Part shown: positions 11,676 to 31,831 of the stretch, in pieces
How the letters are laid out: each line of letters begins with the position of its first letter
How positions within the stretch are numbered: position 1 is the stretch's first letter
Notes under the pieces: generated by a model
Databases searched by the model: none
What the model was told of the DNA's origin: nothing
Seen by the model: only the letters and a program-made list of their open reading frames with translations
Assembly (NCBI RefSeq): GCF_049243625.1
Contig: NZ_CP046975.1
Source: Corynebacterium amycolatum
GTDB taxonomy: Bacteria > Actinomycetota > Actinomycetes > Mycobacteriales > Mycobacteriaceae
Length of the DNA stretch: 32,000 nucleotides
Strand: one strand, 5' to 3'
Program-made: the position numbers and the translations under genes

Positions 11676-11898
11676 GGGTGAGAATCCTCCAAGATGATGG
11701 ACAAGCGACTAATAGCGCCAAGCGACTCTCCAGTCACATTGACACCATCAACCACGATAGTGCGATTTTGTAACAACCAGACTTTAACAAACCTGTGCCG
11801 CGTCAAAAAGTAGTTTCGACGAAGAAATGTGAAAGATGTGCAAGTAGTGTGCACAGTGCTTTATGACGGATACCTTTTTCGCGAACGGACTCGAGGAT

Positions 11899-11962
11899 AC
11901 AGTGTTATCAAACGGTTATAAACCGATGGAAAGTGGCAAACGTAACGAAATGATAACACTGT
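11899..11962. repeat. Perfect 12-bp inverted repeat ACAGTGTTATCA / TGATAACACTGT separated by 40 nt
   Basis: The arms are at 11899-11910 and 11951-11962. They lie inside the 540-bp AT-rich intergenic region upstream of the acyl-CoA synthetase gene on the minus strand. Confidence 0.6.
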
Positions 11963-12215
11963 GGTAACGATATCAATTCCGATATTGACCTATATAACTC
12001 TATGAACCCAGGGGTTTTCGGTTGGTTTGTTTGAGGGGAGTGGACCGTGAGTGAATGGCGGTCGCCCCCAGAAATTAGGGGCTAGGATTCTTCAGAAAAA
12101 CAGAAACGTTCGCGACTAGGAGGGGCGGGGGTTGCGAGCGCGTAGCTAAATAGGTGACATATTCGCCGGCTTGAGCCTAGAAGTGTGGTGTCGGTGTGTG
12201 TCGGAAACGGTTGCC

Positions 12216-13073
12216 CTAATTCAGGGTTAGAGCGGCAAGCGCGGGCTCATCCTCTGGTGTGCAGGTGGAGAGCCAACGGTCGATGGCATCGGACTCCGCC
12301 TGCGTGACCCACAGGTTGTATTTCTGTTTTACCGCCACCTGGCGAGCGACATACTGGCAGCGAAATGGTTTGTTGGCGGGTACCCAGGATGCGGCATCGC
12401 TATCTCGCTTTTGCTGATTAGCGGGACCATCGACGGCCAAGAGGTTGAGGGGGTCATTGGCAAAGTCCTGCCGAACCTCAGGTGAGAGCTGCTGTGCTCC
12501 CTTTTGCCAGGCGTCGCTCAAGGCCACAACATGGTCGATTTGCACGGCGGAAGAGGTGTCGCGGCCGCGCTGAAACTCAATCATCGTGCCAGTGTAGGGA
12601 TCCAGTAGTTGCCCCGAAAGTACGACGCAATCGCGGGTATTTGGTTTGTACTCCTTATTAATAAGGTCACGATTCAAAATGTCGTTCCGCGTGTCACATC
12701 CGTTGTGGCCAAACTCGGCAGAGATGTCATCGCTCCAACGTTGCCCGAATTCGTCGCGCGCATAGCCGGTTTTCGGTGCGCGCCCTTTTATCTCCAGCTG
12801 GTTGAGGGCGCTACGGATGCCGTCGATAGGCGATGTGCCGGGCGCTGGGGTGCCGGGGGAGTCTGGGGTGTGGGGCGCTTCAGGAATCTCGGGCGCGGGT
12901 TCCGCTGGCTCGGGCGTAAAAGCGGGTGCCGGGGCCGGGCTATGCGACTGGCTCTCTGGAGTGGGGTCTATGGGATCCGTGCAGCCGCTGAGGATTGTCG
13001 CTGCGCCGATAAGGAGGGCGAGGCCCTGTAATGGCGAGCGGAAACGACGGTTGGCGAGCATGGAGCTAACCAT
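12216..13073 (-). CDS. Secreted lipoprotein with a DUF1524 / His-Me-finger (GmrSD C-terminal-like) nuclease domain
   Basis: ORF 12216..13124, but that start is a TTG. ATG 13073 or ATG 13061 gives a signal peptide (MLANRRFRSPLQGLALLIGAATILSGC) with the lipobox LSGC. A Pro/Ala/Glu-rich linker follows. The DUF1524 hallmarks are GHNGCDTRNDIL, IDHVVALSDAW and NLLAVDGPANQQKRD. The exact start is uncertain. Confidence 0.8.
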   Translation of the reverse strand: MVSSMLANRRFRSPLQGLALLIGAATILSGCTDPIDPTPESQSHSPAPAPAFTPEPAEPAPEIPEAPHTPDSPGTPAPGTSPIDGIRSALNQLEIKGRAPKTGYARDEFGQRWSDDISAEFGHNGCDTRNDILNRDLINKEYKPNTRDCVVLSGQLLDPYTGTMIEFQRGRDTSSAVQIDHVVALSDAWQKGAQQLSPEVRQDFANDPLNLLAVDGPANQQKRDSDAASWVPANKPFRCQYVARQVAVKQKYNLWVTQAESDAIDRWLSTCTPEDEPALAALTLN

Positions 13074-13263
13074 AGCGGTAGGAGGGGATTGGGTATGGAG
13101 GGGATTTGCTAAAGAATCGAACAACTGTGCGTGGATAGTGGGGGTGGTAGCTCGATTAGGGGGTTATGAGATTAAAACGGGTAGTAAAAGCCCGGTTTTA
13201 TTCGGGCTGGCAGGCTGGTCTAGCTCCTTCGGGGGTGGGCAAATACAGTTAATTCCCTAAATA

Positions 13264-13277
13264 CGTATTGCAATACG
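13264..13277. promoter_or_regulatory. Perfect 14-bp palindrome CGTATTGCAATACG about 90 nt upstream of gltB; candidate operator
   Basis: Read directly: the reverse complement of 13264-13277 is identical to the forward sequence. It lies in the AT-rich gltB upstream region. Confidence 0.35.
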
Positions 13278-13368
13278 CCTAGATGAAAGTGCATTGTTAA
13301 AACAGTTGGAAATATAGATAACCCGTGTCCCCCAATTGGCACATTGCACCTACAAGGGGAAAACAGCC

Positions 13369-16300
13369 ATGACAGCTAAGACAGCCATGACTCTGATCGA
13401 AACAGCGGCCACATTGCCTCGTGGTCCTCAGAGGGAAGGTCTCTACCACCCGTCGAACGAACACGATGCGTGTGGCGTGGCCTTTGTTGCCGACATTTAC
13501 GGTCGCCAGACCCATGACATTGTGGAAAAGGGCATTCAGGCACTGGTCAATCTCGACCACCGCGGTGCCGCCGGTGCAGAGAAGACCACCGGCGACGGTG
13601 CCGGCATTCTCATTCAGGTTCCGGATGCCTACTACCGTGCTGAGCTGAGCAAGGAAGGCGTTATTTTGCCGCCGGCGGGAACCTACGCCACTGGTATCGC
13701 CTTCCTGCCGCAGGCGCGGATGGCCACTCTCGATGCCATTCGGGCTATTGAAGACACCTGCGCTGAAGAGGGCATCGAGATCCTGGCATGGCGCGATGTA
13801 CCGATCGACGCTGAAGGGCTCGGCCAGATGGCCCGTCAGGCTATGCCAGTGCTCCGTCAGCTCTTCGTTACCGCGAAGAACTACGAGGGGCGCCAGCTCA
13901 GCGATATTGATCTCGACCGCAAGATGTTCTTCCTGCGTAAGCGCTGCGAGCGTGAGCTGGGCGAACGGGGCGCCGGCGAGGGCTCTGGCGGCGACACCGT
14001 GTACTTCCCGTCGCTGTCCAGCCGCACAATTGTCTACAAGGGTATGCTCACTACCCCGCAGCTGAAGGATTTCTATCTTGACCTGCAGCAGAAGGAAGTT
14101 ACTTCCGCGCTGGCCATCGTGCACTCGCGCTTTTCCACGAACACTTTCCCGTCCTGGCCGCTGGCACACCCGTACCGCTACGTCGCTCACAATGGTGAGA
14201 TCAACACCGTGCGCGGCAACGAAAACTGGATGCGCGCCCGCGAGTCGCTGATTCGCTCTGGCAAGCTGGGCAATATCGACCGCGCGCTGCCGGTGTGCGA
14301 CCCCAACGGTTCTGACACTGCGCGTTTCGACGAGGCCCTGGAGCTCCTGCATCTCGGTGGTCGCAGTCTCCCGCATGCGGTCATGATGATGGTTCCGCAG
14401 GCCTGGGAGCACGATGACAACCTCAGCCCGCAGGTTCGCGCGTTCTACGAGTACCACGCCTGCCTGATGGAGCCGTGGGACGGCCCCGCCGCTATCTGCT
14501 TTACCGACGGCCAGGTCATCGGTGCCACCTTGGATCGCAATGGCCTGCGGCCGGGACGCATTTGGGTGACTGACGAGGGCCTGGTGGTGATGGCCTCCGA
14601 AGCTGGTGTCTTGGATATCCCGCCGGAGCAGATTGTGCAGCGCACGCGCGTACAGCCGGGGCGTATGTTCCTGGTGGACATGAAGGCCGGTCGCATTATT
14701 GAGGACAAGGAGATTAAGTCCACGCTGGCCGCCACTGGGCCCTACGAGGAATGGATCAAAGAAGGCCTGGTCGACATCGCCGATTTGCCACGAGAGCGCT
14801 ACCAGTACATGCCGCATGCCCGCGCGGTGTTACGACAGCGCGTCTTCGGCATCACCGAAGAAGACGTTGACCTAATCATCCGCCCGATGGCACTCACCGG
14901 CGCGGAGGGCCTGGGTTCGATGGGCTCGGACACGCCGATTGCGGCGCTGTCCAACCGACCTCGCATGCTGTTCGACTTCTTCTCGCAGCGGTTTGCACAG
15001 GTGACCAACCCGCCGCTGGACTCGCTGCGCGAAAAGTCCATCACCAGCATGAATACGTTGCTGGGGGCAGAGACCAACATCTTGGAGCCCACTGCCGATG
15101 CCGCCCGTCGTATCCGGCTAGAGCATCCAATCCTGGACAACCACGACTTTGTCACCCTGTGTCAGGCGGGCAAGAACGAGGAGTACTCCGAGTTCCGCGC
15201 CGAGGTCATCTCCGGCCTGTACCCGGTCGCCCGCGGTGGCCGTGGCCTGCGCAACGCTATTCGTCGTGTCCGCCGTGAGGTCTCTGAAGCCATTGACCGT
15301 GGTGCCCGACTGATTGTGCTGTCTGACCGTGAGTCCAACGAGCGCTTTGCGCCGATCCCCTCGCTGCTGCTGACCTCTGCGGTCCACCACCACCTGGTGG
15401 AGGAACGCACTCGGACGCGTGCCAGCCTCATCATTGAGGCTGGCGACGCCCGCGAGGTGCACCACATGGCCATGCTGCTGGGCTTTGGTGCCGATGCCAT
15501 TAACCCATACATGGCTTTCGAAACCATCGATGAGCTGCGCATGAAGGACCAGCTCGGTGATCTGACGCTGGATCAGGCCTGCTCGAACTACTGTAAGGCC
15601 GCCTCCAAGGGCGTGCTGAAGGTCATGTCCAAGATGGGTATCGCCTCACTGCAGTCCTACCGTGGCGCACAGCTGGCCGACACCGTCGGTCTGTCGCAGG
15701 AGTTCCTGGACGAGTACTTCACCGGCGCTGTTTCTCCGCTGGAGGGCATTGGCCTCGACGAGGTCGCAGAAGATGTTGCCGCTCGCCACCGCAGCGCATT
15801 TCTGCCGCGTCCGGAAGAGCAAGCACACCGCGAGCTGGATCTCGGCGGCGAGTACAAGTGGCGCCGCGAAGGCGAGTACCACCTATTCAACCCGGAGACC
15901 ATCTACACGCTGCAGCATGCGACCCGCACTGGTCAGTACGCGGTCTTCCGAGATTACACCAACAAGGTCGATGAGCAGACCAAGCAGCTGGCAACTCTGC
16001 GCGGCATGCTCGAGTTCGTCTCGGATCGCGAGCCGATCGACATTGGAGAGGTTGAACCGGTCTCCAGCATCGTCAAGCGTTTCTCCACCGGCGCGATGAG
16101 CTACGGTTCCATCTCCGCGGAGGCGCACGAGACGCTGGCTATTGCCATGAATCGCCTGGGTGGCATGTCCAACTCCGGCGAGGGCGGCGAGGACCCGGAC
16201 CGCTTCGAGATGGAGGCCAACGGCGACTGGAAGCGCTCTGCCATCAAGCAGGTCGCATCGGGTCGCTTCGGCGTGACCAGCCACTACCTGTCCAACTGCA

Positions 16301-19551: not shown

Positions 19552-22191
19552 TTAGTTCACCACTATGTCGCCGCGTGCTCCCATTTCGGCATGCACCATC
19601 TGGTGGTCAACAAAGCGGTACGTGCCCGGCTCCGGGAATTCGGCCTCAACATAACCACCCTGCGCGGCACCGAGGTCAAGGGCTTGGGCGCCGCCCACGC
19701 CGTCGTCAAGCAAAAGCGTTCCCTCTTTGTACACGCGATGGAACTGCGTACCGACGATGTGGAAGCTCGTGCCCTTGTTGGGGCCTGCGGCCAGTAACCA
19801 GAAACGTACCGTCTCACCTGCGCGAATGCGGATGGGGTGGGTGAGATACTGGTCGGGGTAACCGTTGAACTTGTAGATATCCGGATCCTCGGCCATGACC
19901 TTGTCGGCATCGGGGCCGGCTTCGCCCCAGTAGCTTTCGGACTGCACCAGAAGAACTTCGTGGTCGACTTCTGCGAGGCTCGGCGGGTCAATGATGACCG
20001 CACCGTGCATGCCGGCAGCGATGTGCATGGACATGGGCATGGTTGCGCAGTGGTACATCCAGATGCCCGCCCGGTCGGCGCGGAAGCGGTACTCAAGCTT
20101 CTCGCCAGGGGCAATGTCTCGCATCGGCTCATCCGGCGAGACAATGCCCGCGTGGAAGTCGATGGAGTGACTCATCGTGCCATCGTTAATGAGCGTGACG
20201 ACGAACTCGTCGCCCACCTTGCCGCGCAGGGTTGGCCCCAGCGGTTTGCCGTTGAATACCCAATGCTGCTGCTCGACGCCAGGGGCAGCGTAGCCGGTGA
20301 ACTCGCTGGCTCTCAGGGTGACGTGGTGGACTGTAGTGTCCTCGGCGGGCGCCAATATTGGATTAATGGTAGGGGAGTCTGGGCCGGGTTGCTCGCCGAC
20401 ATTCCCGAGCGCACCGGGAGTGGCATGGTCAGCGTGGTTGCCACGTCCGGTGTGGTGTGAATGATCAGTGCTACCTGTATTGACCGTGAGCGTCATGCCC
20501 ATCTGGCGGTGACCAGCAATGGTGCACCAGCCGTCAATGTCACCGGGAACAACCGGCACTTCAATGGTGGCGGAGTTGCCAGGGGCGACACGTCCGGTGT
20601 CCTCGCCGGTGGCCAAGCGCAGATCGTGGACCTGGGAATCAGCGTTGACCATGGTGATGACCAGGCGGTCACCGGGGTTGACCTCGATGATGTTTGGGGT
20701 GTACGTCATATCGTTGGCGGTAACCGTGACCTCGACGGTCTCGCCGGTGGGTGCGATATCGCCGGTGGTTTCAATGCTGCCCGTTCCGCCGCCACCGCTC
20801 AGCGCAACACCAATAGTCACTACCAGACCCAATACAGCCAGAGCGGCGGTAGTTTGAGCACCGAGTCGACGTGCAGTTGCGTGCAGTTCGACCGGCTTCG
20901 GCGTTGCTTCTTTGTTGGCCCGTGCCTTCTGACTTTCTTTCAGCGCACCAATCTGAGCCTTCGCGGCACGACCGACAAGTGGCAGATAAGACACCAAGGC
21001 AAGGGAGACCATTGCGGAGACCGCCACTTTGGCCCAGGAAGGCAGCGGCATTAGCCACAGTGCCAGACCAATATTGATGATCGACCAGCGGAATGCGCCC
21101 GCGCGGTCAAGTTCCTTCATACCGGCAGAGACTGGGCCAGCACCTCCGCCGATGGTGGCGGGCAAGAGTTGGCTCATCATGCCGATAAGCAATTGTGCGC
21201 CGAAACCGATTACCAGCGGCAGCGTAAGGGATGAGATTACGAAGCTGCCGTCAAGCGCCTTGACTGTGGCAACTGTGAGTGTGCCGATCAGCCAGACGGC
21301 CGCAGCCGCAACAGACAGCGCCGGGTAGCTGAGGCGGTCGCGGGGGTCTTTAGCGACAGTCATGACGTTGTGCGCCCACGGAATGGCGGCTATAACCCAG
21401 CCGATAGTGATGATGCCAAGGCCGACGGAGGCGAACCAGTTGAAGCTGGTCAGTGCACCGATTGTGGTAGTCGCGATACCTATGAGCTGTACTGCTAGTG
21501 CCAGCTTCGGGCGGGAATGCGGCGACATCTGGGTTCGCCACAGCGCTGGGAACATGGTGATGAGCGTGCCGCAGGCCGCGAGCCCGAGGAAGCCAATAAG
21601 GTTGATGGCTTCATGTGCCAGTAGGAGGTCGTCGTGAAGCGCTTCGCCCTTCGGAGATGCGAGGATGGCGCCGAGCGTGGCGCCGATCGGCAGTAGGCAT
21701 GCCGACGCGACGTAGTACGCAACGGAGATGGCGAATGGTCGATCGCGTTTCGCTACCAGGTCGCGTCCGAGGGAAATCGCATGCCATGCGACGGCGACGC
21801 CGACGACCGCCGCGCCGGCCGTGGTCACTGGCCACCAATCGCCCAGCTTGCCGACGACCGTTGCGACAATGCCCGCGTTGAGCAGGTAAATGTTTGCTAA
21901 CTGAATGTGCCGATTGCCATCGGGCACATCGATTTTCAGTAGTTTCTCGGTGAAGTGGCGGCCCCAGATAAGGATGGAGTTAGTGACGGCGCCGAGGGTA
22001 AAGAGGTGCACCAACAGCCAGCGCCCATCGGTGACAAATGGGTGGACTAATGCGGCCACAATGATGGCAGCGAACCACCAGCGCACCGGCATACCGGCCT
22101 TGCGATGCCAGGACATGCGGTGACTCTTGCCAGGTTTAGAAGGGGGTTTGGTTGTGGGGGCTTGGGGCTCTGGTGTGGCGGGCGACGACAT
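19552..22191 (-). CDS. Membrane-anchored multidomain copper nitrite reductase (NirK-type core) with an N-terminal polytopic membrane domain and an extra cupredoxin domain
   Basis: 879 aa. Residues ~30-470 form about 10-13 hydrophobic helices. Residues ~480-570 form a cupredoxin with type-1 Cu ligand spacing (QVHDL ... WCTIAGHRQMGM). A His-rich linker follows (TDHSHHTGRGNHADHATPG). The NirK core carries SHSIDFHAG (T1 and T2 His), YHCATMPMSMHIAAGMHG (T2 His, T1 Cys/His/Met), FHIVGTQFH and a C-terminal VDHQMVHAEMGARGDIVV. Confidence 0.8.
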   Translation of the reverse strand: MSSPATPEPQAPTTKPPSKPGKSHRMSWHRKAGMPVRWWFAAIIVAALVHPFVTDGRWLLVHLFTLGAVTNSILIWGRHFTEKLLKIDVPDGNRHIQLANIYLLNAGIVATVVGKLGDWWPVTTAGAAVVGVAVAWHAISLGRDLVAKRDRPFAISVAYYVASACLLPIGATLGAILASPKGEALHDDLLLAHEAINLIGFLGLAACGTLITMFPALWRTQMSPHSRPKLALAVQLIGIATTTIGALTSFNWFASVGLGIITIGWVIAAIPWAHNVMTVAKDPRDRLSYPALSVAAAAVWLIGTLTVATVKALDGSFVISSLTLPLVIGFGAQLLIGMMSQLLPATIGGGAGPVSAGMKELDRAGAFRWSIINIGLALWLMPLPSWAKVAVSAMVSLALVSYLPLVGRAAKAQIGALKESQKARANKEATPKPVELHATARRLGAQTTAALAVLGLVVTIGVALSGGGGTGSIETTGDIAPTGETVEVTVTANDMTYTPNIIEVNPGDRLVITMVNADSQVHDLRLATGEDTGRVAPGNSATIEVPVVPGDIDGWCTIAGHRQMGMTLTVNTGSTDHSHHTGRGNHADHATPGALGNVGEQPGPDSPTINPILAPAEDTTVHHVTLRASEFTGYAAPGVEQQHWVFNGKPLGPTLRGKVGDEFVVTLINDGTMSHSIDFHAGIVSPDEPMRDIAPGEKLEYRFRADRAGIWMYHCATMPMSMHIAAGMHGAVIIDPPSLAEVDHEVLLVQSESYWGEAGPDADKVMAEDPDIYKFNGYPDQYLTHPIRIRAGETVRFWLLAAGPNKGTSFHIVGTQFHRVYKEGTLLLDDGVGGAQALDLGAAQGGYVEAEFPEPGTYRFVDHQMVHAEMGARGDIVVN

Positions 22192-22248
22192 ATATCAATA
22201 ATACGCATACTGGTTGCGCATTTAATAGGGGTGCATGTAAGAGTGCTT

Positions 22249-22452
22249 TTATTTGGGCAGGTCTTCGCCGTTTTTGTAGGCCTGCCAGAACTGTGTGGTC
22301 TGCTGTGTCTGACTCATCCGGTTTTGAATCAGCATCAGGGTAGCAAGCAATAGCGTCATCACCGTTAGAACTGAAACGGCAGTAATCAATGCAGCAAGGA
22401 AGGGCTTCCGGATGATGAAAGCGCGTGCCCGACGCGTTGATGATGTGCTCAC
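22249..22452 (-). CDS. Hypothetical small single-pass membrane protein (67 aa)
   Basis: GTG start at 22452. The translation has a basic N-terminus (RRARAFIIRK) followed by one hydrophobic helix (PFLAALITAVSVLTVMTLLLATLMLI). It is on the same strand as the NirK-type gene and 57 nt upstream of it. There is no recognisable family, so coding status is unproven. Confidence 0.4.
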   Translation of the reverse strand: MSTSSTRRARAFIIRKPFLAALITAVSVLTVMTLLLATLMLIQNRMSQTQQTTQFWQAYKNGEDLPK

Positions 22453-22691
22453 GGAGAAAGTGTAACCCTTTTGTCAAAAACGATTGTTTGAGTATTCACG
22501 CAAATACTTCCGTGAATAAGCATCTCAATAAAGAGGCGATTTTGCATTAATTGGAATCGTCGGGAAGTGGTTACGTTAGAAGTTAGTTTGTACAGCTAGT
22601 TATATGAATGTAAACAGATTGAAGCTTCGGTAAATAGTTGGCGAAACATTGTTTTACCAGGGAGGATGACGGGTGGAAAGGGTGGCTTTTT

Positions 22692-22715
22692 GGCTACCCG
22701 AACGATGGGGTAGCC
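22692..22715 (+). other. GC-rich hairpin (8-bp stem GGCTACCC/GGGTAGCC, 8-nt loop) in the leader of the glycan operon
   Basis: Read directly. It is about 105 nt upstream of ATG 22820. No U-run follows on either strand, so it is not a canonical terminator. Confidence 0.3.
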
Positions 22716-22819
22716 CATTGGAGTAGAGGGCTGTAAATGTAGTTCATATCGCATAGTATGCCAAGCCTGTGGAACGCATTGTGCGTAGGAAAATTTAACC
22801 AGCAATAAAAGGCATAAGA

Positions 22820-24696
22820 ATGTTTATCCGAGACTGGAAGCAGCTCGCCTGGTGTGTATTTGATGTACTCGCCTGGCTGGTTGCGCTGTCCGCCGCTAAT
22901 GGAATCGTCCGCGGTGAATTGGTATCTTTCTCTGAAATATCAGGCACTAATTTTTTGGTTGTCGCTGTCGCCGTGGTAGTCATCGTCCTGCTTGGCCTGC
23001 TGCTCGGGGAGTACACCAACCCGCAACGCGTATGGCCCGGCAGTCGAACTGAAGATATTGTTCTGCTGAGCATCAGCATGGGGGGCGCTACCGCAGCCAC
23101 TGGTTTGGCTCAAATTCTGAAGACCTTCCCGGAAATTGCGTGGTACGTTCCGTTCGCCGGTGGCTGTGTCGCAACTTTGGCAAGTATCTATACCCGAACT
23201 CTCGCTCGCTGGATTACCGATAACTTTGGCACCCGCCAGACGGATGATCGCTTGATTGTTCTCGGTGCAGGCCGTCGAGCCAAGTTTTTTATTAACAGCC
23301 TTACGGATTCCGGTATTTCCCGTGAGAACCGCTTCCACTTGGTTGGAATCGTCGATCCCGAAGAAAGCGGTGAGAACCATATTTCTCGTATCCATGGTCT
23401 CCGCGTGATTCGTGGCATTGATCAGTTGGGCGAAGTCGCATCGCGCACTTCGGCGCAGTCGGTCATCATTGCGACTAATGAGCCACTGTCCACTGAGTGC
23501 ATCAATGTCCTCAACCACATTTGTGAGGAATCGTCCCTGCGCCTGCTTATTCTGCCGCCGGTGGAGGAGTACTCGCGCCACCGTGGCGCTGTCGCTACCT
23601 CGCAGGTGCGCGAAATTAACATCGCCGACCTCATCGGCCGCCAGCCGCTGCACCTGGATGAATCCAAGGTCGCTTCGATAATCCGCGGTAAGAAGGTGCT
23701 GGTCACAGGCGCTGGCGGTTCTATCGGTTCCGAGATCTGCCGACAGGTTCACCGCTTTGAGCCGGCAGAAATTATCATGCTGGATCGCGATGAGGGCGGC
23801 TTGCATGCCACTCAGCTGTCGCTGACGGGTTCGGCGCTTCTCGACGGCTCCGATACCGTCTTGGCTGATATCCGTGACGCGGAAATGCTGACGCAGATCT
23901 TCACCGAGCGCAAGCCCGATGTTGTCTACCATGCTGCAGCTCTCAAGCACCTGCCGCTGCTGGAGAGCTACCCTGCAGAAGCAGTGCAAACCAATGTCAT
24001 CGGAACCCAGAACGTCCTGGATGCAGCCGCTGCGGCCAATGTTTCAACCGTTATTAATATTTCCACGAAAAGGCTGCGAACCCAGCCTCGATTCTGGGTG
24101 AATCCAAGCGCGCCGCAGAACGTCTGACTGCGCACATGGGGCAAACTCACGAAGGTGTCTGGGCATCTGTCCGCTTCGGTAACGTGTTTGGCTCGCGTGG
24201 CTCGGTCATTACGACTTTCCAGCGTCAGATTGAAGAGGGCGGCCCGGTTACGGTGACGCACCCTGACGTTCAGCGCTACTTCATGACCATTCCGGAGGCA
24301 TCGCAGCTGGTGCTGCAGGCTACCGTTATTGCAGAGTCCGGTGAGACTCTGGTGCTGGAGATGGGTGAGCCGGTCAAGATTGCTGAGCTGGCGGAGAACC
24401 TTATCAGGCTCCATGACGCAGACGTAGAGATTGTCTACACGGGTCTTCGCGAAGGTGAGAAGATCTCCGAGGACTTGGTTGATGACCGCGAGGTTCCCAA
24501 GATTGGTGATCGTCATCCGCTGATTACTGAGGTACGTGTTGAGCCGGAACGGCTGAATTCGCGGATTCTCCCGTGCACACATAATCACGATGCTGCACGT
24601 CGTTGGCTTGCAGAGCACGGTGGGGCGCAAAGCAGTATTGCGGCGTATCCCGCTGGTGCACAATCACTTGCAACCGCTAGCTCGAAGGCAAAATAG
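22820..24696 (+). pseudogene. PglF/CapD-like membrane-anchored UDP-GlcNAc 4,6-dehydratase (Polysacc_synt_2 family), interrupted by a 1-nt frameshift near 24067-24071
   Basis: ORF 22820..24127 is in frame 2. It has N-terminal TM helices, the Rossmann motif VLVTGAGGSIGSE and HAAALKHLP, and reads ...VINIST and then nonsense. The family sequence continues in frame 1, which is open from 24058: EKAANPASILGESKRAAERL...RFGNVFGSRGSV...RYFMTIPEA, ending at 24696. The junction coincides with the conserved STDKA-type motif and the run AAAA at 24068-24071. Confidence 0.75.
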
Positions 24697-24714
24697 TTAG
24701 GATGACTCCCCACC

Positions 24715-25959
24715 GTGACAATCACCAGCTCCTCTAACTCCGGGCAGCTGGCGCAAAGAGTTCGAACAGTTGCGACGATTTCGGCAGCTTCAGCGCTGGC
24801 CGCAATCGTCGCTTTTGTGGTCAGTATTCTTTCCGCGCGAGTGCTGGGGCCCGCCGGTCGAGGCGAGGTCGCTACCGTTTTGCAGTTCGCCTATATTGTG
24901 GCGCCCTTCGTCGGCTTTGGGGCCGATCGGCTTTTGCTGCGCCGCGATGATTACGACCACGGTCTCATTCCGAGTGGTTTCGCCATGACTGTGGTCGCTC
25001 TGATTGCCTGTGCCATCGCAGGTGTCGTCTACGGACCGTGGACGGCAATGGCCGGCGTTGTCGCCTTGGTTACCGTGTCATTTTCCATGGTTCGTGCGAT
25101 GGCTATCAGCCGCCATCGAGTGTCTTTCTTTGTCGCAGTATTCGTCGGTTTCCAGGGCTCAGTACTGCTGATTAGCACTGCATTGTATTTTGCAGGAGTC
25201 GAGGACTGGCGCTGGTGGGCTGCGGCCTATATCTTCCCGGCGCTGCCCCTGGCAATCTGGTCGCTAGCGAAGTCACGCAAACACACCGATTCCCGTGTTG
25301 GCGGAGTGGTAGAGACGGCTCGAACAAATGCCCCATTCATCGCATCGGGCCTGGGACCGCTGACGACGACACGCTTGGGGCGCGTTTTACTGCCGGCGCT
25401 GGCCTCACCGGCGTCGTTAGGCCTTTTCGTGGTCGTGGCTACGGCGACAGAGCCGCTGTATTGGGTCGCGCAATCGGTCGCCGATCAGCGCACCAGCGAC
25501 CAGAGGGGTCGCGAACTCACCCCGTCTCGTGTGCTCCGACACCTTGGCATAGTCACTGCAGCGTACGGCGCGCTTGGTGCGCTCGGTGGTGTGGCACTCT
25601 ACTTCCTCATCGTGCCGGTATTCGGCCATGAGTTTGAGCCTGCCCGGGAGTTGGTGCTGCCACTGACTATCGCGGCCGTGGTGCTCGGCTGCTACCGACA
25701 CCTGTGCGGTGAAATTCTCGGCAGCGACAATCCCCGTCGAATTGGCCGAGTGGAGCTCATTTCCGCCGTTATCGCTGTCATTTGTTACCCGATTGGCATT
25801 CTTCTCGGAGACGCCCTCGGCCTCGCGTGGACTAGCGCAGTTGTCTATTTTGCAGCAGCCGTGGTTGCGGCAGTGGCGCTAATGCGGCCAACCGGAGGCC
25901 AGAAGAATCCATCAACTACCACCGAAGAACTCCCCGTCGACGTAATCGAGGAAAGCTAA
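24715..25959 (+). CDS. Wzx-like oligosaccharide flippase (MOP/polysaccharide-biosynthesis family membrane protein)
   Basis: 414 aa with about 12 hydrophobic helices. The N-terminal pattern SILSARVLGPAGRGEVA is typical of Wzx-type proteins. GTG start with AGGA 12 nt upstream. Confidence 0.7.
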   Translation: MTITSSSNSGQLAQRVRTVATISAASALAAIVAFVVSILSARVLGPAGRGEVATVLQFAYIVAPFVGFGADRLLLRRDDYDHGLIPSGFAMTVVALIACAIAGVVYGPWTAMAGVVALVTVSFSMVRAMAISRHRVSFFVAVFVGFQGSVLLISTALYFAGVEDWRWWAAAYIFPALPLAIWSLAKSRKHTDSRVGGVVETARTNAPFIASGLGPLTTTRLGRVLLPALASPASLGLFVVVATATEPLYWVAQSVADQRTSDQRGRELTPSRVLRHLGIVTAAYGALGALGGVALYFLIVPVFGHEFEPARELVLPLTIAAVVLGCYRHLCGEILGSDNPRRIGRVELISAVIAVICYPIGILLGDALGLAWTSAVVYFAAAVVAAVALMRPTGGQKNPSTTTEELPVDVIEES

Positions 25960-25962
25960 ACA

Positions 25963-27153
25963 ATGCGAATCACTTATATCCACCAGCACTTTGTTCTCCC
26001 CGGTGAGCCGGGTGGTTCCCGACCCTACGAGTTTGCCCGCCGAATGGCCGCTGTAGGCCACGAGGTGACAATGATCTGTGGTCGCGATGAGGCCATGGAT
26101 AAAACTGTTGATGGCATCCACGTGCGTCGTCTAGCGATTCCGTACCGCAATGAAATGTCGAAGCGCGAGCGCATCGTCAGTTTCTTCAACTTCCTAGTGC
26201 GCGCCTCCGCGGTTGCTGCCCGTGTGCCTGCCGACGTGATTTACGCGTCCTCGACTCCGCTGACTGTGGCGGTTCCGGGAATTGTGGCGAAGTTTACTCA
26301 GCGTGCACCGTTGGTGGCGGAGATCCGTGACCTGTGGCCAGAGGTGCCGATCAAGTTGGGCTATCTCAATAATCCGGTCGCGATTTTCCTGGCTAAGCAG
26401 CTGGAGAAGGCATTCTATGCGGCATCGAGCGAGGTGGTGGCGCTGTCGCCGTCGATGGCCGATGGCGTCAAAGAGGTAGCTCCGAAGAAGCGCGTGACCG
26501 TCATTCCAAATGCGTCGGACTTTGAGCGCTTTGATATCCCGGCCGAGCAGCGTGCGGCTTTCCGCAAGGAGCAGGGCTGGGGCGATGATGTGGTGGCCGT
26601 CTACGCCGGTGGTTTTGGCATGTCCTACCAGCTGGAGTGGCTTGTGGATTTGGCGGCGCAGCTGCGTCGTGATGGCGTGGAGAATGTGCGCTTTGTCCTG
26701 CTGGGGCAGGGAAGCGACTCGGATGCGTTGTACCAGCGCGCTGAGAACGCTGGTCTCGATGCCGATGCGATGTTCCTCGGCCGTCAGCCGAAGGAAGATG
26801 TCGCCAAGTACGTGTCTGCCGCCGATATCGCGCTATCGCCGCTGCGTGATGACCCCTGCCTGGAGGGCAACTCCCTGAACAAGGTCTTCGATGCCATGGC
26901 CGCATCGCGTCCGGTGGTGTTCAACCACGGTGGCTGGCTGGAGGAAGCCGCAACCGAGCACGATGCCGGTTGGCGTCTCTCGCGCGATATTCCGACCGCG
27001 GCCAAGCGATTCGCTGAGATCATCTCCGACCGCGATGAGATGCGCGCAGCGGGACAGCGAAACCGCGAACTGGGTGAGAAGCGTTTTGCTCGTGACAGCC
27101 TGTACAACCAGCTCATCGAGGTACTCAACCGCGTCCGAAAGGTTCAGAAGTAA
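25963..27153 (+). CDS. Glycosyltransferase family 4 (WbuB-like)
   Basis: 396 aa. The N-terminus MRITYIHQHFVLPGEPGGSRPYEFARRMAAVGHEV is characteristic of WbuB-type GT4 enzymes. The C-terminal half is GT-B fold. The start is 3 nt after the wzx-like stop. Confidence 0.85.
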   Translation: MRITYIHQHFVLPGEPGGSRPYEFARRMAAVGHEVTMICGRDEAMDKTVDGIHVRRLAIPYRNEMSKRERIVSFFNFLVRASAVAARVPADVIYASSTPLTVAVPGIVAKFTQRAPLVAEIRDLWPEVPIKLGYLNNPVAIFLAKQLEKAFYAASSEVVALSPSMADGVKEVAPKKRVTVIPNASDFERFDIPAEQRAAFRKEQGWGDDVVAVYAGGFGMSYQLEWLVDLAAQLRRDGVENVRFVLLGQGSDSDALYQRAENAGLDADAMFLGRQPKEDVAKYVSAADIALSPLRDDPCLEGNSLNKVFDAMAASRPVVFNHGGWLEEAATEHDAGWRLSRDIPTAAKRFAEIISDRDEMRAAGQRNRELGEKRFARDSLYNQLIEVLNRVRKVQK

Positions 27154-28331
27154 TGACTAACGCCGACGCTAACAAGCCCAATGAGCGGATCTTTCTTTCG
27201 CTCGCGACAGTCACCGAAGCAGAAGAACAGGCCGTCGTTCGTGCACTCCACTCTGGTTGGGTGGCTCCGTTGGGCCCCGAGGTAGACGCGTTTGAAGCGG
27301 AGATTGCCAAGCGCTGCGGTGTTGAGCACGCGCTCGCACTGTCGTCTGGTACTGCTGGCCTGCACTTGGCGCTGCTCGCGCTGGGGATTGGTGAAGGTGA
27401 CTACATCCCGGTTTCCACCATGACCTTCGCGGCCACGACCAACGCCATCGCTTACGTCGGCGCTACGCCAGTGTTTATCGATGCCGCAGAGGACGGCAAC
27501 ATCGACCCTGAGCTGCTGCTCTGCACCGTCGATGAACTGCTTGCCGAGGGCAAGAGCGTTCCTGCCGTGATGATTGTGGACCTCTTCGGCCGCTGCGCCG
27601 ACTACCCGGCCTTCGCGCCACGCCTGGAAGAACTCGGCATCGCGCTCATCGAGGACGCCGCCGAGGCGCTCGGTGCTAGCGTCGATGGTCAGCCGGCCGG
27701 CAGCTTTGGTCGTGCCGCCGCGCTGTCTTTCAACGGCAACAAAATCATGACCACCTCCGGCGGTGGCATGCTGCTGTCCAACGATGCTGATCTCATCGCC
27801 CGCGCGCGCTACCTGTCCACGCAGGCGCGTCAGCCCGTCGCTTGGTACGAACACACCGAAATCGGCTACAACTACCGTCTTTCCAATCTGCTTGCCGCGC
27901 TGGGGCGGGCGCAGCACTCGCGTCTGGACGACATGATTGCTCGCCGCCGCCAGATTCGCGACGCGTACCTAGATTTGCTCGCCTCGCTTGACGACGATGC
28001 CCCTGGTAAAGGTACCCGCTTGCTCTCTGACTCCGACGAGCGGTTCACCGAGAACTGCTGGCTGACCTCGATTGTGCTGCCACAGGATGCCGTCGATAAG
28101 GGCGTGCTGAGCCCGGACAGCGTGATTGCGGCGCTGGGTGAGTCCAACATCGAGGCTCGTCACCTGTGGAAGCCGATGCACCTGCAGCCGGTGTATGAGG
28201 GCGCGCGAGCGACCATCAACGGTACCGCTGAGAATCTTTTCTCCCGCGGCATTACTCTTCCTAGTGGTCCGGCGCTGGACGATGACGACGTCGCGCGGGT
28301 GATAGGTGTTTTGAAGGAAGTGCTGGGATGA
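27153..28331 (+). CDS. DegT/DnrJ/EryC1-family PLP aminotransferase (PglE-like sugar 4-aminotransferase)
   Basis: 392 aa. It has EDAAEALGA and the PLP-lysine region SFNGNKIMTTSGGGML. The start overlaps the GT4 stop (TAATG). Confidence 0.9.
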   Translation: MTNADANKPNERIFLSLATVTEAEEQAVVRALHSGWVAPLGPEVDAFEAEIAKRCGVEHALALSSGTAGLHLALLALGIGEGDYIPVSTMTFAATTNAIAYVGATPVFIDAAEDGNIDPELLLCTVDELLAEGKSVPAVMIVDLFGRCADYPAFAPRLEELGIALIEDAAEALGASVDGQPAGSFGRAAALSFNGNKIMTTSGGGMLLSNDADLIARARYLSTQARQPVAWYEHTEIGYNYRLSNLLAALGRAQHSRLDDMIARRRQIRDAYLDLLASLDDDAPGKGTRLLSDSDERFTENCWLTSIVLPQDAVDKGVLSPDSVIAALGESNIEARHLWKPMHLQPVYEGARATINGTAENLFSRGITLPSGPALDDDDVARVIGVLKEVLG

Positions 28332-29890
28332 CTTCTACTGAGGTAGCTGGAGAAGCTGTAAAACAGCGAAAACCAATACTGCAGTCGCTATTTATTGTGG
28401 TGGCCGCAGGAATGTTTGCTGGTGTTCTCTACGTTGGCGACATGACGATGAAGGATGTCTCCGCAGCGCTTCCTGATTTATCTTTGGCATTGTCGATTTT
28501 GGTGATCGTTGCAATCCTTACCGCCGTTGGCACGCCTCAATCTCAGCGCCAGAGTTGGTTGAACGCGATGAAAGGCGCTGGCAATGTAAAACAGTGGCCG
28601 ATTGCAGCGTGGGCATTAGTGGCGTTCTATGTCTGGCTGTTATGGATGATGCTGTCCGGACTATGGGCTCCTGAAGCTGCCGAAGTCGCTCCCGTCGTTA
28701 CTGCGTTGATAACGCTCGGACTCATCGCCACGATGGCAGCGATACTGTTCTATTTGCATCCTCAGGCACTGGTGTGGCTGTGGTTAGCAATAGCCATTTG
28801 CTCGCTTATTTTTCTCTACGGCGGCATTACTGGTCCGAAATATGTCGGACGTATGACTGCGTTCGGCGGTGGCCCGAATGTCTTTGCCCGTTTCATGCTG
28901 TACGGCATCGCGGCAGCTGTGTTTTTTATGCTGTGGCGTAAGTTCATGTGGGCAGCTCTCTTGTTCGCTGCACCATTTGCTTACGGTCTCGTTGCGTCGG
29001 GAAGCCGCGGTGTACTGGTTGCTACCACCGTGGTAGTCCTCTTTACCGCAATAGCTGTGTTTTTTCACTGGGGTTGGAAGTGGGCGACTGTTTTTTACGT
29101 CGCTGTCGCCGCAGCGGTCGCGTATGGATACTCGCGATTCATCGCAGGTACCGAGATTGAAGAGTACTTTAAGACGCGCTTTATCCAGTTGACCTTCGAA
29201 AAAGAACATGATTCTGGGCGTAGTTATCTTCACGATGAAGCTTTCCGAATCATGGGTGAACACCGCATCTTTGGTGGTGGTCTGCACAGCTTCGTTGTGC
29301 TGTCGACACCGAGGTCTTCACGTCCACTGGAGCATCCGCACAATATCTTCTACACAGTCGGATCTGAAGCGGGTGTCATAGGAATCGGTCTGTTTGTGAT
29401 TGTGCTGGTTGTGTTGGCAATCGCTTGTCGCCACCTATTCAAGTTTCTTCAAGCTGGTCTGACCGTAGCTGTGGCGTTAGCGGTTCTTGTGGCACAGGTT
29501 TTTTCCGGCTACTACTACGATTCCCGTTCGCTATGGCTATTTGGCTTTGCAGCAGCATTTGCAATGCTGAGCCTACGGTGCCGCGCGCAGGACACAGCAT
29601 CGGTAGAACCAGAGCTGGAGCCGCAACCAGAACCCGCAGCCGAGCCCGAACCAGTCATGGTCACCGATACCGCGGAGCCGGTTGTGCCGGAGCTGGAGCC
29701 AGCGGTGGCCGTCGTCAAGCAAAGTGCGCCTGACAACAAGAATGACAACAAGAAACTGCGCGTTGCGGCAGCGTCGTTTGCTGCGGCTGGTGCAGCGGGT
29801 GCGATCGGTTGGTTGGTCAGAAACCGTTCAAATGCGGAAGTCGATGCGCGTGCCGAAAAGCTTCTGCGCGAAATGTTCAACGAAAAGTAG
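28328..29890 (+). CDS. Wzy_C / O-antigen-ligase-family polytopic membrane protein with a C-terminal Pro/Glu-rich linker and an extra TM helix
   Basis: 520 aa with more than 10 hydrophobic helices. A large loop (EIEEYFKTRFIQLTFEKEHDSGRSYLHDEAFRIMGEHRIFGGGLHSF....EHPHNIFY) resembles the Wzy_C periplasmic loop. The start overlaps the aminotransferase stop (ATGA). It is the most AT-rich gene in the locus. Confidence 0.72.
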   Translation: MTSTEVAGEAVKQRKPILQSLFIVVAAGMFAGVLYVGDMTMKDVSAALPDLSLALSILVIVAILTAVGTPQSQRQSWLNAMKGAGNVKQWPIAAWALVAFYVWLLWMMLSGLWAPEAAEVAPVVTALITLGLIATMAAILFYLHPQALVWLWLAIAICSLIFLYGGITGPKYVGRMTAFGGGPNVFARFMLYGIAAAVFFMLWRKFMWAALLFAAPFAYGLVASGSRGVLVATTVVVLFTAIAVFFHWGWKWATVFYVAVAAAVAYGYSRFIAGTEIEEYFKTRFIQLTFEKEHDSGRSYLHDEAFRIMGEHRIFGGGLHSFVVLSTPRSSRPLEHPHNIFYTVGSEAGVIGIGLFVIVLVVLAIACRHLFKFLQAGLTVAVALAVLVAQVFSGYYYDSRSLWLFGFAAAFAMLSLRCRAQDTASVEPELEPQPEPAAEPEPVMVTDTAEPVVPELEPAVAVVKQSAPDNKNDNKKLRVAAASFAAAGAAGAIGWLVRNRSNAEVDARAEKLLREMFNEK

Positions 29891-29900
29891 GAGATGACCA

Positions 29901-30566
29901 ATGGATTCACTAAGCATCCGCGCGCAACGGGTAATTAAGCGTGGCATCGACGTCGCGGCGTCTGCAGCAGGCCTGATTGTGCTGTCGCCAGTTATGGGTG
30001 CTACGGCGCTGGCAGTACGGCTTTCCATGGGGAAGCCAGTCCTATTCCGCCAGGAACGCCCGGGCCAGGATGGTGAGCCGTTTAATATCCTCAAGTTCCG
30101 GACGATGCACCACGTCAATCCGGCAAAGGGGTTTGTCGACGATGCGTCCCGCCTCACGCAGGTAGGAAAATTCCTTCGGTCCACAAGCTTGGATGAGCTC
30201 CCGGAGCTCTTTAACGTTCTGCGTGGCGATATGAGCCTCGTTGGTCCGCGTCCGCTGCGCATGAAGTATCTAGAACGTTATTCGCCGCGCCAAGCACGCC
30301 GCCATGAGGTGCCACCGGGAATTACGGGGCTTGCCCAGGTCTCGGGCCGCAATGGCATCACCTGGGAAGAGCGTTTCGAGTACGACGTGCAGTACGTGGA
30401 TAATTGGTCGCTACTGCTCGATGCAAAGATCCTGCTCGACACGATCTTGGTGGTGCTGAGGCGCGAAGGCATCTCAGAAGAGGGTCAAGCGACCATGACT
30501 GAGTTCACCGGTTCGTCGAACAATGGGTCGTCGGATAAGGACGTCTCCGCTAACGAAGATTCTTAA
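29901..30566 (+). CDS. Small monotopic phosphoglycosyl transferase (Bac_transf family, PglC-like initiating sugar-phosphate transferase)
   Basis: 221 aa with a single N-terminal re-entrant helix (AASAAGLIVLSPVMGATALAV). Motifs: PVLFRQERPG, FNILKFRTM, DELPELFNVLRGDMSLVGPRP, PGITGLAQV. AGGAG lies 8 nt upstream. Confidence 0.9.
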   Translation: MDSLSIRAQRVIKRGIDVAASAAGLIVLSPVMGATALAVRLSMGKPVLFRQERPGQDGEPFNILKFRTMHHVNPAKGFVDDASRLTQVGKFLRSTSLDELPELFNVLRGDMSLVGPRPLRMKYLERYSPRQARRHEVPPGITGLAQVSGRNGITWEERFEYDVQYVDNWSLLLDAKILLDTILVVLRREGISEEGQATMTEFTGSSNNGSSDKDVSANEDS

Positions 30567-31254
30567 TCACACTTGCGGGAACACCGGCGACAACGGAGTA
30601 GTCATCGACGTCTCTGGTAACTGCGGCTCCGGATCCGATGTACGCTCCCTCGCCGACGGTGAGGCCGGGGTTGATTACGGAGTTGGCGCCTAGGGTGCAG
30701 GCTTCGCCAAGCGTGACAAAGCCCGACACGGCATTGAGCGGGAAGATTGTGCAGTAGTCTCGCAGCACCGCATCGTGGCCGATCGTGACATTCATATTGA
30801 TTTGGGCGTGCTTGCCTACCTCAATATTGCAGGTCAGACGTGTTCCGGGGCAGATGACCGTGCCCTCGCCGAGCGTGACCAGCGCACCAATGCTGGTGTC
30901 TGGGTGAACCAGAGTCGCGGGCACGAGCTCCGCGGCATCTGCGCGTTGCGCAATCGAGCGTCGAGCAGCACCGCTGCCGATTGCGACTGTGTAGTAGACC
31001 CCCTCGGGCAAGTCCGCGAAGATGTCGGTCTTACCTAAAAACTGCACGCCCATTTTGTGGAAAAATGTCATGTCCGGGGCGCCATCATCGATAATGCCTA
31101 GGATTTCCCACTGCGCTGGTAGGCCGTTGGCTGCTGCGTAGTCATTGATGTCCTTGATGAAGCTGACCACGTTGCGCCCAAAACCACCAGCGCCGACGAT
31201 GACAATCTTTTCGGTCGTCGTGTTGTTAATCCACTGCTTTGGCATGAGTGTCAT
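30550..31254 (-). CDS. NeuD/PglD-family sugar N-acetyltransferase (left-handed beta-helix)
   Basis: ORF 30550..31368 begins at a TTG with an Arg/Gly-rich, non-family N-terminus. The family sequence starts at ATG 31254 or ATG 31245 (MTLMPKQW...EKIVIVGAGGFGRNV, a Rossmann-like N-domain). Hexapeptide repeats follow (VHPDTSIG..VTLGEGTVICPG...IEVGKHAQINMNVTIGHD). The 3' end overlaps the pglC-like 3' end by 17 nt. Confidence 0.8.
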   Translation of the reverse strand: MTLMPKQWINNTTTEKIVIVGAGGFGRNVVSFIKDINDYAAANGLPAQWEILGIIDDGAPDMTFFHKMGVQFLGKTDIFADLPEGVYYTVAIGSGAARRSIAQRADAAELVPATLVHPDTSIGALVTLGEGTVICPGTRLTCNIEVGKHAQINMNVTIGHDAVLRDYCTIFPLNAVSGFVTLGEACTLGANSVINPGLTVGEGAYIGSGAAVTRDVDDYSVVAGVPASVIKNLR

Positions 31255-31303
31255 TATCCCACTGATAGCCGTATTTAGCCGGAGTGCGTGCCCCAGAATC
31301 CGC

Positions 31304-31831
31304 CTACCACCAGTACGTCGGATACCGAAGGCGGCGCAGCCGGTTGGCGAGAATCCCCAACGCCACAATCATGATTGAAGAGGCGAAAACGAAGCCAAGG
31401 AGACGGAAGTCGTTGCTGATGCCGGGGCCGTGTGGCATCAGCGCGGTGACAATCGCGGTAGCGGTCGCTGGGGAGTGAGCTGCCCGAGCAATGAGCATAA
31501 GTGCGAATGCGATACCGGCGGCGATTGCTGCGGTGATGATGGAGACACCAAAAAGTCGCGAGAGCAGGATGCCAGTGATGCAGCCGATCAGGTGTCCAAC
31601 CACAACATTTCGCGGTTGTGCCAGGGGCAAGTTCGGTGCGCCGACGATAAGGGCCATGGCGGCCCCAATAGGGGGCAAAAACAGCAGGTCGGAAATGGAG
31701 TTTGAGATGAGCGCCAAGGTCATAAGCGGCAAACTCACAGCCACTGAAGCGGCGACAATATGACGCAGCGGCGGGCGGGGTGGCGCTTCGCTGGCGATCC
31801 GGGGCCACTTCGGAGACCGTGAATTAGACAT
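31304..31831 (-). CDS. HPP-family integral membrane protein
   Basis: ORF 31304..31945. It has four to five hydrophobic helices and an HSPATATA segment at the position of the HPP(A/P)GA motif. I moved the start to ATG 31831 because the longer form would overlap the divergent S4-domain gene. The start is uncertain. Confidence 0.65.
   Translation of the reverse strand: MSNSRSPKWPRIASEAPPRPPLRHIVAASVAVSLPLMTLALISNSISDLLFLPPIGAAMALIVGAPNLPLAQPRNVVVGHLIGCITGILLSRLFGVSIITAAIAAGIAFALMLIARAAHSPATATAIVTALMPHGPGISNDFRLLGFVFASSIMIVALGILANRLRRLRYPTYWW

Follow-up and report, generated by a model that had tools for sequence, protein, structure and literature searches.

We describe here a compact glycan locus of Corynebacterium amycolatum, at positions 22820-31254 of a window of 32,000 nucleotides (the whole stretch of DNA analysed, from contig NZ_CP046975.1 of assembly GCF_049243625.1), for which a bacillosamine-type pathway, a Wzx-like flippase and a Wzy_C-family protein had been predicted from the letters of the sequence. 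The open reading frames (ORFs) of the window were checked by an ORF listing and by profile scans against Pfam and NCBIfam. All ORFs of the locus were found where that original prediction had placed them, with the same junctions between them (a 3-nt gap, TAATG, ATGA and a 10-nt gap), and the expected profiles Polysacc_synt_2, DegT_DnrJ_EryC1, PglD_N plus Hexapep, Bac_transf, GT4 and Wzy_C were all matched, Polysacc_synt being sub-threshold. The "eight adjacent genes" first reported are correct in position but not in number: two Polysacc_synt_2 ORFs are parts of one frameshifted dehydratase gene, so that the locus has seven genes. Its features are the following.

22192-22819, no strand assigned: AT-rich non-coding leader, between a divergent multicopper-oxidase gene and the locus (GC 0.49 for 22001-23000)
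22820-24696, plus strand: PglF-type membrane-anchored UDP-N-acetylglucosamine (UDP-GlcNAc) 4,6-dehydratase, a pseudogene here (Polysacc_synt_2 in two ORFs)
24715-25959, plus strand: candidate Wzx-like (MOP-family) flippase, 414 amino acids (aa), polytopic (Polysacc_synt 23.3 bits, below the gathering score)
25963-27153, plus strand: GT4 glycosyltransferase, predicted to add the second sugar (Pfam Glyco_trans_4_4 and Glycos_transf_1)
27153-28331, plus strand: PglE-like sugar C4 aminotransferase of the DegT family (DegT_DnrJ_EryC1, E 1e-86)
28328-29618, plus strand: Wzy_C-family polytopic membrane domain, residues 1 to ~430, proposed repeat-unit polymerase (Wzy_C, 55 bits)
29619-29890, plus strand: conserved C-terminal module of the Wzy_C protein (gene 28328-29890), 88% identical to the C-terminus of the 567-aa allele P0010
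29901-30566, plus strand: PglC-like small monotopic phosphoglycosyl transferase (PGT), 221 aa (Bac_transf, E 3e-65)
30550-31254, minus strand: PglD/NeuD-family amino-sugar N-acetyltransferase (PglD_N and Hexapep; TIGR03570 above cut-off)

The last two genes are convergent, and their 3' ends overlap by 17 nt (30550-30566). The closest named relatives of the locus are in Corynebacterium amycolatum and allied isolates, at ~93% nucleotide identity; loci used in comparison are referred to below by number (L001 and so on).

A PglF/E/D/C-like route to a UDP-2,4-diacetamido-2,4,6-trideoxyhexose, with loading of the sugar on polyprenyl phosphate, had been proposed and is sustained by the closest solved relatives of the enzymes (PglF, PglE and PglC), by the NeuD/PglD family of the acetyltransferase and by an intact aromatic box in the PGT. 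For the dehydratase, the best PDB match of an intact relative of 628 aa is C. jejuni PglF (5BJU, 249.5 bits, versus 148 for CapE), with the ISTDKA motif aligned. The aminotransferase is of PglE type, with its best PDB matches to C. jejuni PglE (1O61 and 4ZTC, 245-247 bits over residues 13-385); against the LegC-family model of NCBIfam it scores 307 bits, below the cut-off of 420. The acetyltransferase carries PglD_N and exceeds the cut-off of the NeuD/PglB/VioB model TIGR03570 (166.5 versus 160.8 bits), placing it in the PglD/NeuD family, and its best solved relative is VioB (100.6 bits) rather than PglD; WeeI (71), the acetyltransferase domain of N. gonorrhoeae PglB (64) and C. jejuni PglD (54.6 bits) follow. 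The PGT finds its best PDB match, over its full length, in C. concisus PglC (8E37, 205 bits), with WbaP at 137 bits. Anderson et al. tie specificity for UDP-linked N,N'-diacetylbacillosamine (UDP-diNAcBac) to an aromatic box (Y118, Y122, W150, F154, F197), a C-terminal extension and a GLLLP loop (PMC10186338). The box is complete in our protein, where Y123, Y127, W155, F159 and F202 align with those residues of the C. concisus enzyme, and the extension is present, the alignment with C. concisus PglC reaching the C-terminus; the loop is degenerate, with G-FVD, shorter by one residue, in place of the C. concisus GELLP. K122-E201 is a charge-swapped version of the salt bridge E117-K196, by which C. 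concisus PglC holds its C-terminus in place, and as a compensatory pair it lends support to the structural model published for that enzyme. As judged from these residues, the PGT is probably specific for UDP-diNAcBac, and an initiating sugar of bacillosamine type is well supported; its exact identity is inferred, the gluco configuration and the stereochemistry of the amine being beyond what sequence can tell.

The next steps foreseen in the original prediction, a single GT4 transfer followed by flipping, agree with the GT4 domains found by Pfam in the 25963-27153 product, for which a PDB search gave no informative solved relative. The "Wzx-like flippase" is a candidate, assigned by a Pfam match that stays under the gathering score of 28.2 together with homology to the Actinoplanes protein at the position assigned to Wzx by Tezuka and Ohnishi (93 bits). 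Its orthologue in L006 carries PF01943, and many hydrophobic stretches were seen in the candidate itself by a crude hydropathy scan.

The fate of the flipped unit depends on the product of 28328-29890. Pfam assigns it to Wzy_C (55 bits), returning besides only a low-complexity match, and gives no match at E <= 10 to PglL_A (PF15864), a model built to separate PglL from WaaL. Its sole NCBIfam match is to TfpM (E 4e-5), at 23 bits where that model demands 600, which leaves it outside that family, and a sequence search against PDB chains found nothing. The fold is WaaL-like: an AlphaFold2 (AF2) model, with a mean predicted local distance difference test (pLDDT) score of 76.5, has WaaL (7TPG) as its sole significant PDB match (E 6e-7, TM-scores 0.48/0.59). 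The family alignment shows no variation at R227, R298 and H338, which form an Arg/Arg/His triad that is common to WaaL and PglL and hence does not discriminate between them.

The genomic surroundings of its homologues are more informative. When one genome per species was retained, a scan for Wzy_C homologues yielded 79 loci, mostly from Actinoplanes and Paractinoplanes, with others from Agrococcus, Frigoribacterium, Cellulomonas, Aeromicrobium, Tessaracoccus, Geodermatophilus and Corynebacterium spheniscorum. Co-occurrence was counted within 10 kb of the Wzy_C homologue in 86 sequences (the window, L001-L007 and the 79 loci): a DegT gene is present in 82/86, GT4 and wzx-like genes in 75/86 each, and a Wzz/tyrosine-autokinase fusion in 65/86. 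The C. spheniscorum locus (L045) has the block order of the window (dehydratase, wzx, GT4, DegT, Wzy_C, PGT), and directly upstream of the block it encodes a phosphotyrosine phosphatase of the low-molecular-weight type and a Wzz-kinase whose C-terminus bears the cluster YGYGYGY. An ABC ATPase and two 5-helix membrane proteins are inserted there between the PGT and acetyltransferase genes (12506-15078 of L045). The Actinoplanes layout is that of the published wps-3 cluster, in which membrane helices occur only in Wzz, Wzx and an O-antigen-ligase-like protein, the last being assigned as Wzy by the authors, in silico only (PMC13390465); a hydropathy check of L005 agrees with this pattern. In the window locus, L005 and L045 alike, the Wzy_C protein is the only large polytopic membrane protein besides the flippase and so qualifies, by sequence features, as the candidate polymerase. 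No other candidate was found in L005 or L045, which makes the Wzy_C homologue the only possible polymerase for a standard Wzx/Wzy pathway in these two kinase-containing loci. Polymerisation had been listed from the outset among the possible fates of the glycan, and it is this option that the locus context now favours.

A further line of evidence comes from variation at the Wzy_C position itself. Most C. amycolatum genomes encode there a polytopic protein of another type, 567-575 aa in length, which shares with the window protein only the last ~100 residues, at 88% identity. In a blastn comparison the alignment of the window with L004 breaks off after 28332 and resumes at 29619, leaving the segment 28333-29618 unaligned with 10006-11432 of L004, so that the cassette is bounded by the start codon and by codon ~431. 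The remaining proteins differ little between the two allele types (Wzx 98.3%, GT4 99.5%, DegT 98.5%, PGT 93.7% and acetyltransferase 94.0% identity). The polymerase membrane domain is thus a replaceable cassette on a near-identical locus. That the two domains might be divergent alleles of one gene was considered and rejected (hhalign probability 0.2%); both have a similar hydropathy layout, with a hydrophilic loop of ~90-100 residues at the matching place. The 567-aa allele matches no Pfam or NCBIfam family at E <= 10, its relatives are limited to the same clade, and its AF2 model (pLDDT 44) is too poor to assign a fold. Each type occurs in several divergent forms, with identities to the respective query of 49-95% (Wzy_C type) and 60-100% (567-aa type). 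Replacement of one polymerase gene within an otherwise constant locus is classic Wzy behaviour and the usual appearance of Wzy serotype variation.

The C-terminal module that is fused to both cassette types consists of an acidic Pro/Glu-rich linker, one extra hydrophobic helix (residues ~479-497) and a charged tail of 23 residues (...AEVDARAEKLLREMFNEK). It is found in the Corynebacterium members only, being absent from the Actinoplanes homologues and from C. spheniscorum, and a search for it in other protein families gave no significant match among 1.84 billion representatives, with a single borderline one at E 8e-4. Homologues whose loci carry Wzz/kinase genes lack the module.

In the window itself the first enzyme of the route is broken. 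The ORFs 22820-24127 and 24136-24696 match positions 1-129 and 163-279 of the Polysacc_synt_2 profile, and in relatives the dehydratase is intact, a single gene of 625-628 aa. The lesion lies at ~24065-24071, at the codon of the catalytic Asp, and combines, at ~24067-24070, a 1-nt deletion with a C>A change: the window reads ACGAAAAGG where relatives read ACGGACAAGG, that is, TCC ACG AAA AGG in place of TCC ACG GAC AAG GCT (S-T-D-K-A). By this frameshift the Asp-Lys of the S-T-D-K motif is lost, and 23 residues between the two ORFs are in-frame in neither. The intact catalytic Thr-Asp-Lys of a retaining UDP-GlcNAc 4,6-dehydratase, whose role is known from published work on PglF, is accordingly missing in the window and present in relatives. 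The exact Wzy_C protein of the window was found on 16 public contigs, and all five of those listed that include the dehydratase (L087-L091: one NCBI genome, three JGI metagenome assemblies and one Logan assembly) have the same lesion and the same split into 435 + 186 aa; the sequence is intact in L001-L004 and L008. Sequencing error was ruled out as the source of the frameshift: the lesion combines two changes, a deletion and a substitution, and five more assemblies share it, on which account we regard it as real and inherited. The earlier remark that the dehydratase is not intact is therefore confirmed, as a frameshift shared with five assemblies. With every other gene of the locus intact, this looks like a recent, lineage-fixed switch-off of the dehydratase, and because the catalytic Asp-Lys is lost, the pathway is probably off in the lineage of the window.

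Taken together, we hold with reasonable, though by no means full, confidence that this is a Wzx/Wzy-dependent surface polysaccharide locus of the C. amycolatum group, with a bacillosamine-type start, a swappable polymerase and a pathway that is probably off in the present lineage. In strains with an intact dehydratase, the PglF-like dehydratase, PglE-like aminotransferase and PglD-family acetyltransferase would convert UDP-GlcNAc into UDP-diNAcBac or a stereoisomer, and the PglC-like monotopic transferase would move the sugar-1-phosphate onto undecaprenyl phosphate. The GT4 enzyme would then add one further sugar, the lipid-linked disaccharide would be flipped by the Wzx-like protein, and the Wzy_C protein would polymerise the flipped unit outside the membrane, the polymer being attached or released through genes elsewhere. 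The two cassette types would join the same repeat unit by different linkages, giving two serotype-like forms. Three traits set the locus apart: it has no co-polymerase linked to it, its polymerase cassette comes in two forms that keep the conserved tail, and it is probably inactive in this lineage.

Several observations weigh against this interpretation. Sequence and fold place the Wzy_C protein in the WaaL/Wzy/PglL superfamily and do not decide whether it acts as a polymerase, a ligase or an O-oligosaccharyltransferase; indeed, its only structural match is the ligase WaaL, and its only NCBIfam match the weak one to TfpM. The 567-aa allele is taken for a polymerase by its position, and it belongs to no detectable family. 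In addition, no co-polymerase, kinase, phosphatase or LCP gene was found in the window or, for any locus of the C. amycolatum group, in its 9-10 kb flanks. Among the window ORFs, the larger ones scanned had no match to the Wzz, tyrosine-kinase or LCP families, nor had the window a match to a Wzz/tyrosine-kinase query; a linked co-polymerase was missing from the window, L001-L004, L006, L008 and L087, and the region upstream of the locus in C. amycolatum-group relatives holds no remnant of co-polymerase/kinase genes. A query with the C. spheniscorum Wzz/kinase gave no match labelled C. amycolatum among the best 120, most of which lack a species label, so that absence from the species is not shown by it. 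The statement in the original prediction that the window contains no Wzz, LCP or tyrosine kinase thus extends to ~9 kb downstream in close relatives. A Wzy-type context with a Wzz partner, which had been named as grounds for abandoning an O-glycosylation system, exists largely in the orthologous loci, though not just outside this window. It is mainly because such genes are missing near the locus in the C. amycolatum group that readings of the Wzy_C protein as a ligase or as a protein glycosylation enzyme keep some weight.

General protein O-glycosylation, at first thought a real possibility, is in our view unlikely, although it fares best among the alternatives. The Wzy_C protein would here be a PglL/PilO-like O-oligosaccharyltransferase that passes the flipped disaccharide to Ser/Thr residues of envelope proteins in the Neisseria manner, and no polymer would be made. 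A compact locus with one glycosyltransferase and no co-polymerase in the C. amycolatum group, much like the Neisseria pgl gene set, would suit such a role, as would the triad shared with PglL; Gly316 and Gly318, moreover, are spaced from R298 like the Gly residues that Schulz et al. report to be conserved in PglLs. TfpM is itself an O-linking transferase, but the match to it (23 bits, cut-off 600) is slight, and PglL_A is missing even at E <= 10. The adjoining gene encodes a multicopper/cupredoxin membrane protein, and the copper protein AniA is a known substrate of Neisseria PglL; a functional tie of the locus to this neighbour was nevertheless ruled out, since the adjacency is lost in L006 and L045 and is probably a coincidence, and no pilin-like acceptor gene adjoins the locus. 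The evidence that turns the argument against O-glycosylation is contextual: homologous loci encode Wzz/tyrosine kinases (65/86) and a phosphatase, that is, functions of polymer assembly, the synteny with C. spheniscorum is preserved, the Wzy_C homologue is the sole polymerase candidate, and in most strains an unrelated membrane domain takes the place of the Wzy_C domain, as is typical of Wzy. We know of no O-oligosaccharyltransferase that is replaced by an unrelated membrane domain in this way.

A WaaL/TacL-like ligase, moving the lipid-linked glycan to a membrane glycolipid or another envelope glycan and so producing a lipoglycan, seems improbable as well. It would accommodate the WaaL fold, the conserved Arg/Arg/His and the absent co-polymerase, and it has a precedent in TacL of S. 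pneumoniae, a Gram-positive Wzy_C ligase for a teichoic acid whose reducing end is 2-acetamido-4-amino-2,4,6-trideoxygalactose (AATGal), a related trideoxy-diamino-hexose (PMC5727136). The locus would then be left without any polymerase, no second candidate having been found in the window locus, L005 or L045, and the ligase could pass on no more than a disaccharide; where homologous loci do encode a co-polymerase, the Wzy_C protein alone qualifies as a polymerase candidate, and no acceptor-synthesis genes are linked. Of much the same low probability as the ligase is a more speculative scenario in which the co-polymerase/tyrosine-kinase pair was lost in the C. amycolatum clade, and either the Wzy_C and 567-residue proteins came to transfer the diNAcBac unit to proteins or an envelope acceptor, or the C-terminal module serves as a built-in replacement for the co-polymerase; were transfer of the unit to proteins or an envelope acceptor to prove true, Actinomycetota would have their first case of en bloc glycosylation based on bacillosamine. 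Least probable of all is a decaying relic, functionless in the whole clade and not in this lineage alone, to which the fixed dehydratase pseudogene and the failure to find at C. amycolatum-group loci the co-polymerase and phosphatase of C. spheniscorum might point: every other gene of the window locus is intact and full length, the dehydratase is intact in L001-L004 and L008, both polymerase types exist in several divergent forms, and proteins 94-99.5% identical at ~93% nucleotide identity indicate purifying selection.

Around this presumptive polysaccharide locus the flanks are housekeeping genes (gltBD, the membrane multicopper/cupredoxin protein and an HPP protein). The divergent neighbour (19552-22191, minus strand) encodes a protein of 879 aa whose large N-terminal half is polytopic and which also carries cupredoxin/multicopper-oxidase domains and low-complexity stretches rich in Pro, Ser and Thr. 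In the leader, ~105 nt before the dehydratase start, lies a perfect 8-bp palindrome, GGCTACCC-N8-GGGTAGCC (~22692-22715), of which the GGCTACCC...GGGG core is kept across the alignment of relatives, the distant L006 included; it could serve as an operator or form a hairpin in RNA, and it is not followed by a T-run. A consensus scan gave no convincing promoter or terminator in the leader, and scans for Rfam families and tRNAs found nothing useful. At the opposite end, the spacer between the acetyltransferase and HPP genes (31254 to 31304) is a hotspot for insertions, housing an Abi_C gene in L004 (13045-14514) and ~2.9 kb of additional DNA in L008 (about 12947-15836). Further off in the window, a region of lower GC (0.53 for 11001-12000) beside a GmrSD_C-type restriction endonuclease gene (12216-13124, minus strand) may represent a small defence islet at 11001-13124, unrelated to the glycan locus.

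Bacteria of the C. amycolatum group are common on skin, as commensals and as opportunists, and their surface glycans have received hardly any study. Our literature search found no study of this locus in Corynebacterium and no description of a polymer; Wzx/Wzy clusters are known in C. glutamicum and are poorly characterised (PMC7305114). From the locus one would expect a polymer that starts on diNAcBac and has a repeat of two sugars, in two population forms whose only difference would be the polymerase and on which serotype-like variation, susceptibility to phages or recognition by the immune system could rest; the naturally inactivated lineage offers a ready-made negative control. Current understanding is not overturned by any of this, and the locus is perhaps best appreciated beside the systems already known.

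The Pgl pathway of Campylobacter jejuni and C. concisus shares the four-enzyme route, with PglF (249.5 bits), PglE (247) and PglC (205) as best solved relatives and the aromatic box retained. That pathway uses the STT3-type PglB and the ABC-type flippase PglK, whereas neither the locus nor the scanned window ORFs had a match to an STT3-type PglB, a Wzy_C protein is present and a Wzx-like protein stands in place of PglK; the PGT differs from Campylobacter PglC in its degenerate GLLLP loop and in the swap of E117-K196 to K122-E201. Neisseria pgl with PglL is likewise a system for a short, diNAcBac-based glycan, with one or two glycosyltransferases, a flippase and a Wzy_C-family enzyme, from which the present locus departs in lacking the PglL_A motif, in having its Wzy_C gene inside the sugar locus and in having relatives within co-polymerase/tyrosine-kinase loci. 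WaaL (7TPG) and S. pneumoniae TacL belong to the same Pfam family and have the conserved Arg/Arg/His, and WaaL provides the fold match; the Wzy_C protein is 16% identical to WaaL, has no lipopolysaccharide or known glycolipid acceptor, and is marked by its genomic context as a likely polymerase. The nearest relatives outside the C. amycolatum group are the wps-3 cluster of Actinoplanes missouriensis (AMIS_58080-58180) and the C. spheniscorum locus, with homologous DegT, GT4, Wzx and Wzy_C genes in the same order. Unlike the window locus, both have a Wzz/tyrosine autokinase, joined in C. spheniscorum by the phosphotyrosine phosphatase, and their Wzy_C proteins lack the C-terminal module; wps-3, whose function is an in silico assignment, also has other tailoring enzymes and no PglD.

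The eps operon of B. subtilis is much larger and has many more glycosyltransferases, in contrast to a locus with one such enzyme, a polymerase bearing a lineage-specific C-terminal tail, and a function predicted here from its genes. It is all the same the closest analogue studied by experiment, likewise Gram-positive, in which EpsC/N/M make UDP-diNAcBac, the PglC-like small transferase EpsL loads it onto undecaprenyl phosphate (giving Und-PP-diNAcBac) and the glycosyltransferase EpsD adds GlcNAc (PMC10653937). The theme of bacillosamine-initiated polysaccharide synthesis, experimental in B. subtilis, would by these comparisons extend to many Actinomycetota that share the DegT/GT4/Wzx/Wzy_C core.

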